Source: Candidatus Saccharimonadota bacterium (lineage in GTDB: Bacteria > Patescibacteriota > Gracilibacteria > BD1-5 > UBA2023). Taken from it: 32,000 bases of DNA. Shown piece by piece: positions 21,836 to 28,880 of this stretch. Both the position numbers and the translations under genes were made by a program. The notes beneath the pieces were generated by a model. The model was not told the origin of the DNA. It made no database searches and was given only the letters and a program-made list of their open reading frames with translations. The number at the start of each line of letters is the position of its first letter. Position 1 is the first letter of the stretch. Location of the stretch: the NCBI GenBank assembly GCA_046350815.1, contig JAXLZO010000001.1:930001-962000 (forward strand). Reading direction: 5' to 3'.

Positions 21836-22600
21836 ATGTCGCTTCAACTTCGCAACTATAATGTACATCTATCAGCAGAATCCAATCCGGCTACTATACT
21901 GAATGATATACAATGTGAGTTCACTCCAGGTACAACGACCTACATTCTTGGAAAAAATGGCTCTGGCAAAAGCTCGCTCCTCCTCTCTCTTGCATGAGCA
22001 CCATACTATACTACTCATGGAACAGCATTCCTCAGTGAGGTCGATATTTCCAACTTTGATGCCAGCAAACGCTCAGCACTTGGAATATTCATAGCGCTCC
22101 AATCAATTCCATCGATTCCTGGTGTGACGTATGGAGAATTTCTTCGAACGATCTACACACACAAAATCCAACGAGAAAATCCGGAATTCAAGATATCTCC
22201 ATTTGTTTTTGGTCGAATGCTCCAAAAGCACCTTGATGAGCTTCATTTGTCCAAAGATTTTCTCAAACGAGAGGTAAATGTCGGGTTTAGCGGCGGGGAA
22301 AAACGTCGTCTCGAGCTTCTACAATTACGACTCCTAGAACCAAACATCATTCTTCTTGATGAGATTGAATCAGGACTCGATATAGGAGTATTTGAGTTAC
22401 TCATATCAGAATTAATGAGACTTCGATCTGAATGAAAAACACTAATTATCGTCACTCATAATTTTGAGCTTATGAGACGTGTAGGTGGAGATCAAATACT
22501 CATTATCGAGAGCGGAAATCTCATTAAAACAGAGCAATTTTCTGATATATCAAGCACAGAACTAACCCAATATTTTGATTATCATCCAGAGCATGCATAG
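21836..22600 (+). CDS. sufC: Fe-S cluster assembly ATPase SufC, 254 aa
   Basis: The sequence is MSLQLRNYNVHL...ILGKNGSGKSSLLLSLA[TGA=G]APYY. The LAG motif follows Walker A as in E. coli SufC. Other motifs are FSGGEKRRLELLQL and ILLDEIESGLD. The stop is TAG. Confidence 0.93.
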
Positions 22601-23378
22601 AGAAGTCAAATGGGCAATCATCACTGGTGCAAGTGGCGGCATAGGCCGCGAACTCGCGCTCGAGATAACAAGACGTGGGTATCATCCAATCCTCGTAGGT
22701 CGCAATAGCGAAAGCCTCGATGCAGTCGCACTCTCTATTCAGCAAGAATTTGAAATAGAAGCGATCACCCTGCTTGCAGACCTCAGTGATGAATCAGGCT
22801 GGAGATCGATCAAAGGATTCATCGATGAACATATGCTCGAACCACAGGTACTCATCAACAATGCAGGCACCGGAATATATGGCAATCTCTCTGATACCGA
22901 GAGCGAAGATCTCTCATCCATGATCGATATCAATATCCGTGCTACGACGGAACTCACAAGGATATTTTCACGTGATTTTGCGGAACAATGATGCGGCTAT
23001 ATTCTCAATATTGCATCACTAGGAGGCCTTGCTCCTATGCCAAATATGGCAGTCTATGGTGCTTCAAAAGCATACATTGTATCTCTGAGTCTTGCTATGC
23101 GTGAGGAACTCAAGGAATCGAATGTGATGATTTCTGTCTCATGTCCAGGTCCAGTCGACACCAAATTTCTTATCAAAAACGGCTTTGAGTCCGCAAATTG
23201 GGCGCATGATGATAAAAATATTCTCTCTCCACACGATGTAGCAAAGAGAAGTATTGCATGACTTTTTGCAAATGAACCAATTATTCTTCACCGCAGACGA
23301 GATATATTTACAGCATATTTTCTTCGTATTATTCCGACCAAATGGAGTCTTGCACTCCTATCTCGACTCACCAAATAA
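22593..23378 (+). CDS. Short-chain dehydrogenase/reductase (SDR) family oxidoreductase, 261 aa
   Basis: Motifs are the TGASGGIGRE cofactor motif, NNAG, ..AEQ[G]CGYILNIASLGG and the catalytic YGASKAY (YxxxK). The ATG overlaps the sufC stop by 8 nt. The stop is TAA. Confidence 0.88.
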
Positions 23379-23387
23379 ATCCCATTT

Positions 23388-24770
23388 ATGCAAGACATCT
23401 CACGAGAATTCTTTGATCAAAGTGACACTATATCATATACTCACAATTTGCGTCCATGACTTCATGAAGATGTGATCCGATTTATCAGTAGTCAAAATCA
23501 TGAGCCACAATGGATGCTCGAACATAGACTCAAATCACTCGAGATATTCAGGTCGCTTGGTATGCCAAATTGGGGGCCAGATCTCAGTGATCTCGATCTA
23601 GAGAGTATCTATTATTTTGCTCAGCCAGAAGGTGCAAATGATGCAAAGAGCTGGGATGACGTCCCAGATAAGATCAAGAACACCTTTGAACGACTCGGGA
23701 TTCCAGAGGCAGAACGCACAATGCTTGCTTGAGTGGGTGCACAGTATGATTCTCAGGTTGTATACCACTCACTTAAAGAAGAAATCAAAGAAAAAGGAGT
23801 CATCTTCGAAGATATGTCAATCGCACTTCGTGATCATGAAGATATCGTACGAAAACATTTTATGAGAGCTGTTCCGAGCTCCGATCATAAATTTGCAGCA
23901 CTCCACGGCGCGGTATGGAGTGGTGGAACATTTCTCTATATCCCAAAAAATGTTGAGATATCAGAGCCACTCCAAGCATATTTTCGTATGAATGTGAAGT
24001 CTGGTGGGCAATTCGAGCATACGCTTATAGTCCTCGAAGAAGGAGCTCATGCTCACTATATTGAAGGTTGCTCTGCGCCAAAGTATGGTACCAATTCGCT
24101 CCATGCATGATGCGTGGAGATCTATGTTGGTGAATGAGCATCAATGCGATATTCGAGCGTTGAGAATTGGTCGATCGATACATACAACCTCAATACAAAA
24201 CGTGCCATCGTTCAGAAGAATGCATCCATGGAATGGGTCGGCGGCAATCTCGGAAGTGGTACAACGATGCTCTACCCTGCGAGTGTTCTCCTCGGCGATT
24301 ATTCCAGCGCACGCCATATAGGAGTTGCTTTTGCGAATACTGATATGGAGAGCGATACAGGAGCAAAAGTAACCCATATTGGCAAATATACCCGATCACA
24401 AGTAACATCCAAATCCCTCTCAAAATGAGGAGGAAGATCCACCTATCGTGGCCTCATCAATATCAAGCCAAGTGCCATCGGATCTGTATCCAATGTTGAC
24501 TGTGATGGACTTATTCTCGATGCATCATCCAAGAGTGACACCTATCCAGAGATACGAATTGCTAATAATTCAAGTCAGGTCACACATGAGGCAAAAACAG
24601 GATCTCTCTCAGAAGAAGCACTCTTTTACCTCTCAAGTCGATGATTGAGCGAAGACCTCGCAAAGAATATGATTGTTGGTGGCTTCCTCTCCCCTATCAC
24701 TGCCGAACTTCCACTCGAATACGCCATGGAAATGAACGCGCTCATACAGATGGAAATGGAGTGAATTTAG
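23388..24770 (+). CDS. sufB: Fe-S cluster assembly scaffold SufB, 460 aa
   Basis: The sequence is [11 protein letters not shown]...[17 protein letters not shown]...[21 protein letters not shown]...[10 protein letters not shown]...WVGGNLGS.. Four track fragments are in one frame and joined only by TGA. The protein ends ..EMEME[G]I-TAG. Confidence 0.95.
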
Positions 24771-24797: not shown

Positions 24798-25928
24798 ATG
24801 CAGAAAATATTTGATAAAAATACGAGGAAACTTTTACTCTCACGATGAGAGGATTTTATTGTGTCGTTCATTACAAAATGATGTGCTGGAAATAAAGTAA
24901 GTATAGCTATCGCAACGGATGAATATTTTGACAAGAATCTTGACTGCATTATGGAAGGCCAAGAAGGCGATATTCCACTCTGTCTTTGGATAGCACCAGA
25001 AGACACACATCTCCTCGAGAATGCTCGAATGACGATCGTCCCAAAATGAACTGGGGAAACAGTGATTTATACAAGCAATAAAGTATCAAAACGATGCGGA
25101 TGTGGATCGAGTTTTGCCGTAGAGTGAAGAGAAAATACCGCGCACAAACACGAAGAATCCAATCAAGAAAAGATAAAAAAACTCAGTGGCAAAATAACAT
25201 CTCTCAAGGGAAATTTTACAAAGAAATGAACCATCCCAGAAAAAGTTATCTATCTCTCACAAGAGTTATCAACGGATAATAACAGGTTTTTCACTCTCAA
25301 TAAAGAACAAAAACTCATCATTATCGACGATCTCCCTGAGAGTGAAATGGGCATATCCCTATCGGGGATGGGGTCGCTCGAATATTATCTTCTCCTCATT
25401 GAGAGTACCTCACGGAAGCGACTCATCAAATCATTGAACAACCATCAACATATCACAACCCATTTCTTTGTGAATGAATCACAGCAAGATACCCAAACCC
25501 AAAAGAAGAACTATGAGCTCGTGATCGAGGTACATGGATCTCATACGCAGTTAGCATCAAAGAGTCTCACGCTCTCATCAAGCCCAATTCTCACTCGTGT
25601 ACTATCAGGTATTCGCATTCTCTCGGGTCACTCTCATGAGGCAACACTCACACAACGATCTATTCTCCTCTCGGATAATGCATCCATTGCTCAAATTCCA
25701 CTTCTCGATGTTCATACGAACGATACCAAGGCAAGTCACTCAGCAAACATTGTATCCATTACTCCAGAAGAAACTTTCTATATGATGAGTCGTGGGATAT
25801 CGGATGAAGATGCAAAGAATATGAAAATAGTATCGCTCATACGAGAAGTTGTTGATCAACAATATTTGACTCAAGAAGATATAGAACAGTTACTTTTTAG
25901 GCACAATCCCAATCTTGAATCATTCTAA
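24798..25928 (+). CDS. SufA/IscA (HesB)-like domain fused in frame to a SufD-like C-terminal domain, 376 aa
   Basis: Residues 1-109 carry HesB motifs, TK[G]CAGNKVSIAI and ..SKRCGCGSSFAVE. TGA follows at 25125-25127, then a basic linker. The remainder is a SufD-type beta-helix and C-terminus: LLSDNASIAQIPLLDVHTNDTKASHSANIVSITPEETFYMMSRGISDEDAKNM. I checked the frame codon by codon from 25080 to 25347 and found no TAA or TAG. Confidence 0.75.
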
Positions 25929-25969
25929 AAAATATCCTCTCTTCATTCAATGAAGAGAGGATATTTTTT
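25927..25969 (+). terminator. Rho-independent terminator after sufA::sufD
   Basis: A perfect stem of at least 15 bp (AATATCCTCTCTTCA / TGAAGAGAGGATATT) with a TTCAA loop. The downstream T-run partly pairs with the upstream A-run. Confidence 0.75.
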
Positions 25970-26059
25970 ATTAATCTAGTCAATTTTTCTTTTCTGGATG
26001 CTTCACTCGAAGCCAGAGTATTTCAAAGAGTCTTGCGAGTTGTTTGGAAAGGATCTAAA

Positions 26060-26100: not shown

Positions 26101-26130
26101 TAATCGATTTAGAGTTCTATGTTTAAAAAA

Positions 26131-27150
26131 ATGTGCCTTATCTTACTAGCTATCACAGTTTTTGTAGTCATTCTTATTCCAGATAGGAATACTATTCCAC
26201 GAGATGCACAATTTATTGGTGGTTGATATTACAAAAATGGGAATGATGTATATTTTGAAACGGGTTGAGGTTTTTTTCTTCAACTTCATGATCCGTATGA
26301 AGCATACAGAATTGATGAGGCTGATGGCAAAACATTTAGCTATCTTGGTAATAGTTTTGCAAAGGATAAAAACCATGTATATTTTACATGAAGAATTATT
26401 AAATGAGCTAATCCTGATAAGTTTAAATTTGCATCTGGATCATTTTCACAGTATGTTATAGATGATAAAAATGTTTGGTATGGAGATGAAGCTATACCAC
26501 TCGTAGATATTGAAACATTTAGCTATCTTGGTAATAGTTTTGCAAAGGATAAAAACCATGTATATTTTACATGAAGAATTATTAAATGAGCTAATCCTGA
26601 TAAGTTTAAATTTGCATCTGGATCATTTTCACAGTATGTTATAGATGATAAAAATGTTTGGTATGGAGATGAATTATTACAAGATCGAGACCCATGAACT
26701 TTTGGATTAATATATGATATTTTTCCGCATGAATATACAAAAGACAAAGAGAATGTATGGTATAATAGAGAAATAATAGTATGAGCGGATCCTAAAACAT
26801 TTGAACTACTGAGACCAACAGACGGGCTTACCACTTATTCTAAAGACAAAAATTACGTATACCTCAACTGAAAAAAAATCGATATAGATACTAAAACGGT
26901 TAAGGTTGTAGAATGACAAACTGGTACGATTAGATTTCTCAGAGACCAATATGGTGTCTATTGCTTTGAATCAAAAAGAGAATGACATGATAAATTACAA
27001 TTAAATTGAATTAATCTTAACACATTTGAACTTTTGAATAGTGAATACTTAAGAGATGATAAGCATGTATATTTTGCTAATTGTACTTATCAATGATTTT
27101 ACTTTAAAATAGTAAAATGAGCGGATCCTAAAACGTTTAAAATTAAGTAA
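26131..27150 (+). CDS. DKNYY-family repeat protein with an N-terminal membrane anchor or signal, 339 aa
   Basis: The N-terminus is MCLILLAITVFVVILIP. The repeat motifs recur: KDKNHVYFT[G]RIIK[G]ANPDKF, DDKNVWYG, KDKENVWYNREIIV[G]ADPKTF, KDKNYVYLN and DDKHVYFA...VK[G]ADPKTF. The frame is joined through about 15 TGA codons. The stop is TAA. Confidence 0.8.
26330..26673 (+). repeat. Intragenic tandem duplication: two 100% identical 161-bp copies (26330-26490 and 26513-26673) with a 183-bp period
   Basis: Direct comparison of the two stretches. The offset is 183 bp, or 61 codons, so the duplication is in frame and duplicates one DKNYY repeat unit. Confidence 0.9.
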
Positions 27151-27295: not shown

Positions 27296-28486
27296 ATGAA
27301 ATCCGACTTTCCTATATTCTCGAATCGCCCACTCGTCTACCTTGATTCGGCTGCAACCACCCAAAAACCACAATACGTTATTGATAAAGTAGCTGAGTAT
27401 TTAACTACAAGCAATGCAAATATTCATCGTGGTGGATATGCTATCTCTGATGAGAGTGCAGAACTTTATCTCAATTCGAAGAAATCCTATCAGGAGCTTG
27501 TGCACGCAGGTAAAGAATATTCAACCGTATATAGCGCCAATGCAACTCATGCTATCAATGAAATAGCGCTGATGATCGAGCGAAGTGTAAAAGTACAATC
27601 ATGAGATCAGATCATCATACAACGAGACAACCATCATGCGAATATTGTACCATGGATGATACTTGCGCAAAAAACAGGAGCAACCATTGTATGGCTCGAT
27701 ACTCATAATATATCTTCGGGAAATATCATAAAACAACTTCAACAGATCACGACAGAGCACACAAAAATTATTGCACTAACTCTCGTGACCAATGTGACGG
27801 GAGCAATCTATCCATGGAAAAATCTTTGAAGTACTCTCGGCAATAAGATCTATACTGTCGTTGATGCAAGTCAGGCACTCCCCCATCATCTACTCGATAT
27901 AGAGAGTCTCAATGCGAGCTTTGCCGTCGCAACAGCACACAAATACTATGCTCTCACAGGACTTGGGATGTACACAGCAAAAACCGATCTTCTGAGGGAA
28001 CTCACTCCTGGCATTGGATGAGGTGGAGCAATCAATTTTGTCAGAGAAGATGGGTTTGAATTTGCCGGTATGCCTTATCGACACGAGCCTGGCACACCAA
28101 ATGTTGTCGCTGCAGTATCGCTCCTCGCAGCAATTGAATATTTACGAGATAAAAAAAAGCTGATCCAGTCAAAGGAAGATGAACTCACATCATATTTTCT
28201 CTCTTGATTTGAGGATATTCAAGAGAGATTCGAACTCTTGCAATCTCCTACAGGAAATTGAGTAGGAATATTCTCTCTTGTACCAAAAATCGGACACATC
28301 GCAGACTATAGCGACTACCTCTGAGAGCGTCACATAGCCGTGCGAGCTGGACAGCATTGTTGTGAGCCATATCATACTATCTGTAATATATCATGAACAC
28401 TTCGTGTAAGCTTTGGGATATATACAACCCAAGAAGATATTGATACATTCTTTAGAGTTCTCAAATCATCATACGACTATGTATAA
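27296..28486 (+). CDS. sufS: Cysteine desulfurase SufS (class V aminotransferase), 396 aa
   Basis: The sequence is FPIFSNRPLVYLDSAATTQKP...VDASQALPH...ATAHKYYALTGLG (PLP lysine)...TPGIG[TGA=G]GGAI...RAGQHCCEP (catalytic Cys). The frame is joined only by TGA. The stop is TAA. Confidence 0.93.
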
Positions 28487-28880
28487 TGCTTATTTTCTCG
28501 AGTGTGCAAAAAGTCCGACACACAAGTGATCTCTGAATGATCCAAGTATCCGCTACCGAGAAGAAAATCGTCATTGTGGTGAAGCTATTACTATAGATCT
28601 CTCCATTCGAGATAATCGTGTAGACATTATTCGTTTTAACGGAGATCTCTCGATTGTGACAACCGGAAGTGCTGAGATACTCTGCGAGAATATTACTGAT
28701 ATGACCATAGATGAGATATTTACCCTTACTAGTGATGATATGCTCGCAATGACCGAGATAGAAGTAACCAATCGACGTAAACTTGCACTTATACTCCCAC
28801 TTCTCTCTACAAGAAATGCACTCCATACATATCTTTGTGATGGGATACGAGATGATTTTGGAACATTATTAGATCTATAG
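28479..28880 (+). CDS. SufU/IscU-like protein, degenerate (only one of the three canonical Cys ligands is retained), 133 aa
   Basis: The ATG overlaps the sufS stop (ATGTATAA). The sequence is MYNAYFLECAKSPTHK[G]SLNDPSIRYREENRHCGEAITIDLSIRDNRVDIIRFNGDLSIVTTGSAE...RRKLALILPLLSTRNAL, and it aligns by eye with B. subtilis SufU. The stop is TAG. Confidence 0.7.

Follow-up and report, generated by a model that had tools for sequence, protein, structure and literature searches.

A predicted SufA-SufD fusion with a TGA glycine codon at its domain junction in the suf cluster of a code-25 Gracilibacteria genome

The locus analyzed here lies within a stretch of 32,000 nucleotides (hereafter the window) from a Gracilibacteria genome that uses genetic code 25, where a suf cluster is encoded on the plus strand in the order sufC-SDR-sufB-[sufA~sufD]-sufS-sufU, with the bracketed fusion gene in its middle. 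The sufC gene (21836..22600) encodes an ABC ATPase of 254 aa (Pfam ABC_tran, 9e-17), and sufB (23388..24770), which lies upstream and is separated from the fusion gene by 27 nt, encodes a protein of 460 aa with a SUFBD_core domain (Pfam, 5e-76). This SufB matches E. coli SufB (5awf) at E=4.9e-93 and conserves the equivalents of Cys405 and His433-Glu434. Downstream of the fusion gene lie sufS (27296-28486; Pfam Aminotran_5, 2e-91) and a SufU-like gene (28479-28880; Pfam NifU_N, 1.1e-6). The same gene order recurs in five related loci (L081, L082, L090, L091 and L101), and the position of sufC is identical in L081, L090, L091 and L101. Folding revealed a 21-bp perfect hairpin that begins at the TAA stop of the fusion gene and is followed by a U-run (25926..25976, plus strand), with a dG of -27 kcal/mol and a z of -8.5; none of 200 shuffles folded equally well. 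This intrinsic-terminator-like element would close a sufC-SDR-sufB-sufAD unit. A promoter/terminator scan, which missed the post-TAA hairpin and whose counts were at shuffle level, returned no comparable plus-strand terminator-like element after the TGA at the junction of the two domains.

The SufA-linker-SufD open reading frame (24798..25928, plus strand) starts at ATG 24798, ends at TAA 25926-25928 and contains no internal TAA or TAG, giving 376 aa plus the stop when read in code 25. The initial annotation had described it as a single SufA(HesB)-SufD frame running through a TGA, a description borne out by the frame itself, by the domain matches given below and by the same frame in relatives. 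Five in-frame TGAs are present, at codons 17, 28, 84, 110 and 144. Same-clade alignment covers codon 17 (24846..24848), read as glycine, and codon 84 (25047-25049), while codon 28 (24879-24881) is read as the glycine preceding the ligand Cys29 and aligns with the conserved glycine of the IscA GC[SA]G motif. Codon 110 (25125..25127) sits at the domain junction and is read as glycine from comparative codons. Before this junction TGA the frame reads ...KRCGCGSSFAVE and after it RENTAHKHEESNQEKIKKLSGK..., and the junction-spanning stretch of the predicted product is ...SSFAVEGRENTAHK... The 266 codons that follow are free of stops, for which we roughly estimate a chance of ~3e-6 at this base composition. 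As the initial annotation had also stated, the first in-frame ATG, GTG or TTG after the junction TGA is ATG 25347 (codon 184), which would yield only 193 aa. Internal initiation at Met184 or Met191 was considered and rejected, Met184 being found only in the window and Met191 being absent from L082 and L088. In GenBank the fusion is already entered as a single 376-aa CDS, and the NCBI entry MFO0764160.1 ('SufD family Fe-S cluster assembly protein [Candidatus Gracilibacteria bacterium]') is 100% identical to the fusion product. The public labels for this protein disagree, with 'SufD family' used at NCBI and 'IscA' or 'SufB' at JGI.

The 25 called genes of the window contain 159 in-frame TGAs versus 440 GGN codons, and their stops comprise 16 TAA, 10 TAG and no TGA. 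Six TGAs of sufB can be aligned to E. coli SufB and three of them fall on glycine; a seventh lies just beyond the end of the alignment, at a position that we take to be glycine in the E. coli protein. Comparison of relatives showed TGA and GGN exchanging at codons 54, 101, 181/182 and 277 of the fusion gene, and the invariant glycine of the CGCG motif is encoded by TGA in four related loci (L082, L093, L095 and L098). A tRNA-Gly(UCA) was looked for, and neither the window nor nine related loci contained any tRNA gene. Judged from these codon comparisons, the junction TGA behaves as an ordinary code-25 glycine codon, like the other four TGAs of the gene.

The first 109 residues (24798..25124, plus strand) form an A-type carrier domain of the HesB/IscA/SufA-like kind, as indicated by profiles, Foldseek and invariant residues, and carry the three ligand cysteines Cys29 (24882-24884), Cys100 (25095-25097) and Cys102 (25101-25103). 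NCBIfam SufA/IscA models match the domain at E=1e-6 to 1e-5, under their curated cut-offs (TIGR00049, 25.2 bits vs a cut-off of 58.8), and Pfam PF01521 gave no match in the window protein and E=0.0068 in the best of eight homologs. A profile built on the N-domains of four lineages and searched against the PDB matched E. coli IscA (1s98) at E=4.4e-8 as well as HI1723 and SufA (2d2a). Positions 16-107 of this profile span residues 22-106 of the 107 in IscA, and this end-to-end alignment places the junction TGA one codon past the stop of stand-alone carriers, in agreement with the earlier proposal that the carrier domain ends where free A-type carriers end. Foldseek on the N-domain model, whose pLDDT is only 45-65, returned IscA 1r94 (prob 0.98, TM 0.52) and also 1s98, 2apn and 1x0g. 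Residues C29, C100, G101, C102, G103 and F106 are invariant over four deep lineages, and the cysteines align with those of IscA.

The carrier is followed by a basic linker of 37 aa (aa 111-147; 25128..25238, plus strand), which includes TGA codon 144 at 25227-25229. A helix is predicted at aa 122-135, and AF2 gives a pLDDT <45 outside this helix call. The linker motif [LI]K..F.KK(G)[TI][IT]P was found again in L091, L092, L100 and L101. Indels in the linker are in-frame and of 1-3 codons, and its dN/dS is 0.19-0.22, compared with 0.13 in the carrier domain and 0.14 in the SufD part.

The remainder of the protein (aa 148-376; 25239..25925, plus strand) consists of a SufD beta-helix core followed by a domain of helices at the C-terminus, as seen with Pfam, PDB, AF2 and Foldseek. 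A profile search had been proposed as the test of SufD homology in this part, and it found SUFBD_core (PF01458) at aa 279-342 with 60.9 bits vs a Pfam cut-off of 27 (E=1.6e-16) and the SufD model TIGR01981 at E=2.7e-19, the latter scoring 69.5 bits vs an equivalog cut-off of 222. PRK10948 scored 45.8 vs 489, and the TIGR01981 and PRK10948 matches are both confined to ~80 C-terminal residues. SufD in the PDB was matched at E=6e-8. In the AF2 model, strands run over aa 148-320, helices lie at 323-369 and the pLDDT is 76-94, and the best Foldseek matches of this model were SufB/SufD 5awf (E=2.5e-7), 2zu0 and 1vh4. The residues Pro347, His360, Tyr374, Arg378, Gly379 and Ala385 of E. coli are listed as SufD hallmarks (PMC6006206), and their counterparts P301, H314, Y328, R332, G333 and A339 are invariant in three family alignments, His314 (25737-25739) being the counterpart of His360. 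An N-terminal helical domain like that of E. coli SufD is absent from the AF2 model, in which the linker, with its one predicted helix, precedes the beta-helix. In a profile-profile alignment of the fusion family with Peribacteria SufD, only ~90 C-terminal columns align confidently, and the SufD N-terminus could not be placed in the linker.

Homolog representatives were searched with database sequences carrying W at TGA positions. The fusion architecture is common to at least four deep code-25 lineages, always directly after sufB in a sufC...sufB-[sufA~sufD]-sufS cluster, and fused genes were seen only in code-25 contigs. The GTDB ortholog scan returned standard-code Peribacteria/Peregrinibacteria alone, with no code-25 genome, so it was used only as an outgroup. 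In the 80 loci of this outgroup, sufD is short (median 281 aa), and neither a motif search nor an HMM search found a carrier gene within 6 kb of it in any locus. In one related contig, L101 (Ga0247839_1011954), carrier and SufD are encoded by two separate, overlapping ORFs, parted inside the linker by a single-base frame difference. Formally, sufD thereby has its own start and sufA a stop other than TGA, a state that the initial annotation would have counted against its claim. The split lies in the linker and not at the carrier C-terminus, occurs in one contig and is nested among fused lineages; the simplest reading of it is a derived state or an error of sequencing. The L101 contig shows an A6 run and, if this run is real, TTTTAAAAAATGA would be a candidate site for -1 slippage. 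As the halves are separate in L101, covalent linkage may not be essential.

Taken together, we consider it highly probable that one code-25 gene combines a complete A-type carrier, a conserved basic linker and a short SufD in a polypeptide of 376 aa, with the junction TGA read as glycine. The single-base frame difference between the halves in L101 might suggest that the fusion is instead an artefact of assembly or annotation, such as a frameshift error or a chimeric contig, but the frame is full-length and continuous in 17 contigs of close relatives, assembled independently (ENA, Logan, NCBI and JGI), as well as in four deeper lineages, which makes such an error barely credible. The initial annotation had further allowed that TGA 25125 could still terminate fully or partly, giving a free 109-aa SufA, with SufD made from an internal start or by rare read-through. 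This TGA stands at the natural C-terminus of the carrier and is found in 13/13 distinct close-clade sequences, but codons 17, 28 and 84 are equally invariant, and in distant fused orthologs the junction codon is GGT (L090), GAG (L092/L100), AAT (L091) or one for Ser (P0163). The 73 codons past the TGA are under purifying selection and show in-frame indels, and no start codon is conserved after it (L082 has none at all up to codon 200). No gene of the window ends in TGA, and code-25 lineages are not known to have RF2. Because of the distant GGT, GAG and AAT junctions, the selected linker, the in-frame indels and the missing conserved start, we reject termination at this TGA in silico and regard it as very improbable. 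A different objection accepts the single polypeptide and takes its N-terminal domain for a degenerate relic, a structural stand-in for the lost N-terminal helical domain of SufD that no longer carries Fe-S clusters. The scores under curated family cut-offs and the low AF2 confidence are in keeping with such a relic, yet lineages of only 26-43% identity all keep the three ligand cysteines and the GC.G and CGCG.SF motifs unchanged, the domain evolves at the low dN/dS given above, and no second carrier gene was seen in the window or the related loci, all of which render a relic improbable.

As to the origin of this carrier-SufD fusion, the initial annotation proposed that sufA, ending in TGA, and sufD were separate ancestrally, and that the reassignment of UGA to glycine erased the stop so that translation ran into sufD, leaving the junction glycine as a fossil stop. 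The junction codon does lie one codon beyond the point where free carriers usually end, three of five deep lineages have glycine there (TGA in the window clade and GGT in both L090 and L101), and L101, whose junction codon is GGT, has a further TGA one codon upstream. The fusion was seen only in code-25 contigs and in none of the standard-code outgroup loci, which places it on the stem branch on which the code also changed. On the other side, no standard-code relative examined has the unfused sufA-TGA-sufD order, and the TGA junction is confined to one shallow subclade, the window's own, in which SufB is at least 94% identical. TGA makes up 27% of the glycine codons in this genome, so a TGA at the junction is unremarkable. 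Codon parsimony on a SufB-based grouping favors a GGN root (4 vs 7 steps), with synonymous sites being saturated at this depth, and the linker motif is conserved over all lineages, unlike what would be expected of former intergenic DNA. Capture of a stop codon thus seems unlikely to us. Of the original proposal, the fusion itself stands, but its origin by TGA reassignment finds no support in the 80 outgroup loci without a carrier near sufD or in a TGA limited to one subclade. Judging from the ortholog codons, the junction glycine is plausibly ancestral, and the TGA would be a synonymous variant of it. If, as we doubt, the ancestor of Gracilibacteria and Absconditabacteria, while changing UGA to glycine, welded the carrier to SufD by reading through the sufA stop and kept the product, this would provide a concrete, datable case of a stop-codon reassignment creating a new multidomain protein, and would favor a code change through an ambiguous intermediate rather than one preceded by the loss of every UGA stop. 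For studies of code evolution the locus also holds a caution, as a TGA at a domain boundary resembles a captured stop and yet proves interchangeable with ordinary codons in comparisons.

From the comparisons above, TGA 25125-25127 would be translated as glycine within a single polypeptide, and we propose that its SufD half, which includes the C-terminal SufC-binding helices, would pair with SufB and two SufC subunits into a SufBC2D-type scaffold. The tethered carrier may take the finished cluster at the SufB/SufD interface and hand it on to client proteins, and the E. coli-type hand-off from SufBC2D to SufA would become intramolecular. The physical SufBC2D-SufA hand-off is poorly defined in E. 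coli, and A-type carriers usually bind clusters as dimers; with dimeric binding usual and one tethered copy per SufBC2D, the geometry of the hand-off in the fusion is speculative. Transfer of the cluster from SufBC2D to SufA is the accepted model in E. coli (PMC6006206; PMC2682760). A conserved covalent SufA~SufD would give independent evolutionary support to a carrier acting on the SufD side of the scaffold, and structural studies of the transfer step would find in the natural fusion a construct ready for use. We found nothing relevant in the searchable literature on a SufA-SufD fusion or on SUF in Gracilibacteria.

SufA~SufD is a new domain architecture built of known parts. Its SufD part resembles E. 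coli SufD in the SufBC2D complex (2zu0, 5awf) in the beta-helix core, the C-terminal helical domain, the hallmark-residue equivalents and the neighboring sufB, sufC and sufS, but measures ~230-266 aa compared with 423 aa and has a linker and a carrier domain in place of the N-terminal helical domain. Among GTDB genomes, the closest relatives of this SufD are the short SufD proteins of Peribacteria/Peregrinibacteria (35-48% identity in the C-terminal domain), which also have sufB in their neighborhood and for which a short form without the N-terminal helical domain is the rule; unlike the fusion, they have no carrier domain or nearby carrier gene, and their genomes use the standard code. The use of TGA at glycine positions, with TAA and TAG as the only stops, does not differ from code 25 as described for Gracilibacteria and Absconditabacteria (PMC11452946). 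With the A-type carriers (E. coli IscA, SufA and ErpA; HesB, PF01521), the N-terminal domain shares a length of ~109 aa and the GC[SA]G...CGCG.SF ligand motifs; its low-confidence model resembles IscA in fold and, as for SufA, it is encoded within a suf cluster. Its sequence has diverged far enough to score under the curated cut-offs of both Pfam and NCBIfam, and it is not a free protein, its C-terminus running on into SufD. The carrier-like domain of gammaproteobacterial NfuA is not known to have the ligand cysteines, whereas the fusion keeps all three. NfuA, in which a degenerate A-type domain is covalently joined to Nfu, is a precedent for a carrier module fused to a second Fe-S biogenesis module (PMC2682760), but its partner is the Nfu carrier domain, whereas the partner here is a subunit of the scaffold.

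The fusion gene (window 24798-25928, + strand) runs from ATG 24798 through ...KRCGCGSSFAVE, the junction TGA (25125-25127) and RENTAHKHEESNQEKIKKLSGK... to TAA 25926-25928, with five in-frame TGAs (codons 17, 28, 84, 110 and 144) and no internal TAA or TAG, confirming the single sufA-sufD frame that the initial annotation had described. Past codon 110, the earliest in-frame ATG, GTG or TTG is ATG 25347 (codon 184), leaving 193 aa, so the SufD part has no earlier start of its own, again as described. NCBI lists a protein of 100% identity, MFO0764160.1, from a 1.28-Mb contig under the name 'SufD family Fe-S cluster assembly protein [Candidatus Gracilibacteria bacterium]', so the frame already stands as one CDS in public annotation; the carrier half is not named in that entry. 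Homologs of the fusion family are named 'IscA' or 'SufB' by JGI and 'SufD family protein' by NCBI (database records P0203, P0194, P0017, P0165 and P0208), both domains are named by no source, and code-11 gene calling fragments the family at TGAs (e.g., P0016 and P0206).

The analysis shows a single predicted polypeptide of carrier, linker and SufD. Profile and fold comparisons identify the N-terminal 109 aa as a putative A-type carrier. Single-sequence scores were weak (NCBIfam SufA/IscA E=1e-6, below the cut-off) and a Pfam search of this domain gave no match, while a four-lineage profile matched E. coli IscA at E=4.4e-8 (profile 16-107 to IscA 22-106 of 107), with further matches to HI1723 and SufA 2d2a, and a fold search with a low-confidence carrier model returned IscA 1r94 (probability 0.98, TM 0.52). 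No variation occurs in the three ligand cysteines or in the GC.G and CGCG.SF motifs. Free carriers stop two residues past ...SF and here three precede the TGA, so its placement at the natural carrier C-terminus was correct. The SufD homology proposed for the C-terminal part is upheld by Pfam SUFBD_core (60.9 bits; cut-off 27), by TIGR01981 (E=2.7e-19, under its full-length cut-off) and by E. coli SufD structures (E=6e-8). In the AlphaFold2 model, aa 148-320 form a beta-helix that is followed by three C-terminal helices (pLDDT 76-94 for both), and the best PDB fold matches are SufB/SufD of 5awf, 2zu0 and 1vh4. Six residues singled out in E. coli SufD (Pro347, His360, Tyr374, Arg378, Gly379 and Ala385; PMC6006206) correspond to P301, H314, Y328, R332, G333 and A339, which are unchanged across all alignments made.

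The window belongs to a code-25 genome and, with TAA and TAG as sole stops, divides into 25 long, non-overlapping genes, in which in-frame TGAs number 159 and GGN codons 440; gene ends comprise 16 TAA, 10 TAG and no TGA. The alignment to E. coli SufB covers six of the seven SufB TGAs, three of which coincide with Gly, among them the Gly of the RG[IL]S motif, and the seventh lies just beyond the alignment end. No tRNA genes were found in the window or in the related loci. Code-25 lineages are not known to have RF2.

Within this code, the junction TGA appears to be an ordinary Gly codon. Seventeen contigs from independent assemblies carry close relatives (protein 69-99% identical), all with the full-length frame; TGA is invariant at codon 110 in 13 distinct sequences, as it is at codons 17, 28 and 84. 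TGA and GGN replace each other at codons 54, 277, 101 and 181/182. Codon 101 (window 25098-25100), for the leading Gly in the invariant cluster-binding motif CGCG, is TGA in four related loci (L082, L093, L095 and L098), which demonstrates cleanly, from within the window clade, that UGA stands for Gly there. Purifying selection continues past the junction, with dN/dS of 0.13 in the carrier domain, 0.19-0.22 over the 73 codons that follow the TGA and 0.14 in SufD, and linker indels are of whole codons (1-3). No in-frame start past the TGA is conserved, as Met184 occurs only in the window and L082 has none through codon 200. Deeper fused orthologs came from HMMER, run exhaustively against 1.84 billion representative proteins, from a second search that was word-based and from a scan of metagenomes. 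Their contigs are all code 25, with the same neighborhood, sufC...sufB-[fusion]-sufS, and their junctions read ...CGCGSSFAFS-GGT(G)-LPHP in L090, ...SFSFE-AAT(N)-KVID in L091, ...SFSFE-S-KAID in P0163 and ...SFGFE-GAG(E)-KKV in L092 and L100. Termination at 25125, which had been raised as an alternative, was set aside as contradicted by these observations. Because codon behavior, selection, frame integrity and distant orthologs agree, the frame is predicted to be translated through the junction.

For the origin of the fusion, the initial annotation proposed that a sufA UGA stop was captured when UGA was reassigned to Gly, a history that we regard as unlikely. By SufB identity, the lineages fall into the grouping ((((window clade, L092), L090), (L091, L101)), Peribacteria), and among 185,579 GTDB species genomes, the nearest SufD relatives are in standard-code Peribacteria/Peregrinibacteria. 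Motif and HMM searches found no carrier gene within 6 kb of sufD in 80 such loci, whose SufD is short (median 281 aa), so the fusion is placed on the stem branch of the code-25 lineages sampled, where the code itself also changed, a position compatible with capture. Three of five deep lineages have Gly at the junction (TGA, GGT and GGT), and the residues of the others (Ser and Asn in the L091 group, Glu in L092) lie within one or two steps of GGN, so an ancestral Gly is plausible from these codons and would be the expected remnant of a captured UGA. However, an unfused sufA-TGA-sufD stage turned up nowhere, the junction TGA is confined to one shallow clade, and codon parsimony prefers GGN at the root (4 steps compared with 7 by our count, with synonymous sites saturated at such depth). 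TGA already accounts for 27% of the genome's Gly codons, and the linker motif [LI]K..F.KK(G)[TI][IT]P is kept in all lineages, unlike former spacer DNA.

An orthologous locus with an independent sufD start and a non-TGA stop after sufA, which the initial annotation had named as grounds for rejecting its claim, does formally exist, but it has no bearing on the window gene. L101 (L101:2784-3934; JGI Ga0247839_1011954), a locus on a 26% GC contig and sister to L091 (SufB 71% identical), has a 130-aa carrier ORF ending ...SFNF-TGA-GGT-KKVKINLTKLKDLKNNFKK-TGA-ATA-TAA-TAA and a separate 255-aa sufD ORF in the -1 frame, overlapping it by 10 nt, with a start ATG that runs into the second TGA (A-TGA). 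The break lies within the linker, at the codon matching window codon 144 and beside an A6 run, not at the carrier C-terminus. L101 falls within the fused lineages, so its split would most simply be a derived fission or single-contig error; real fission, slippage-dependent expression or sequencing error could each be involved, and a -1 slip on the A-run would restore the fusion.

The gene lies in a + strand cluster of sufC (21836-22600), a short-chain dehydrogenase gene (22593-23378; adh_short, E=2e-43) that overlaps the sufC stop by 8 nt, sufB (23388-24770), the fusion, a DKNYY-repeat gene (26119-27150), sufS (27296-28486) and a SufU-like gene (28479-28880; 133 aa) whose start overlaps the sufS end by 8 nt. 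A perfect 21-bp hairpin with a U-run (25926-25976; dG -27 kcal/mol, z = -8.5), missed by a consensus terminator scan, begins exactly at the fusion TAA, suggesting that sufS and sufU are transcribed apart from sufC-SDR-sufB-sufAD; no comparable hairpin was found 3′ of the junction TGA. The slot between sufC and sufB also holds a short-chain dehydrogenase gene in L081, L082 and L092, holds a NUDIX gene in L091 and is empty in L090. Between the fusion and sufS, the DKNYY gene is present in the window, L087 and L088, small ORFs in L083 and a minus-strand gene of 708-713 aa in L081 and L082. The window copy contains a perfect 183-bp tandem duplication (26330-26673, 1.9 copies) that doubles a 61-aa DKNYY repeat, a very recent event given the 100% identity. 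The SufU-like protein matches NifU_N weakly (E=1.1e-6) and by eye apparently has Ser at the usual second conserved Cys of SufU/IscU.

Both halves of the fusion, and the adjacent SufB, have conserved ligand and interface residues. In the E. coli model, SufBC2D hands its cluster to SufA (PMC6006206; PMC2682760), and by analogy the SufD half would join SufB and a pair of SufC subunits, and the carrier tethered to it would take up the cluster formed at the SufB/SufD interface. As carriers normally ligate clusters as dimers, this would take either two complexes or SufD-SufD pairing. Literature searches yielded no carrier-SufD fusion, and among the top matches of the exhaustive protein search it occurred only in code-25 lineages. 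The fusion gene combines known parts in a new domain architecture. Carrier-like domains are already known in fused form, NfuA being one case (PMC2682760).
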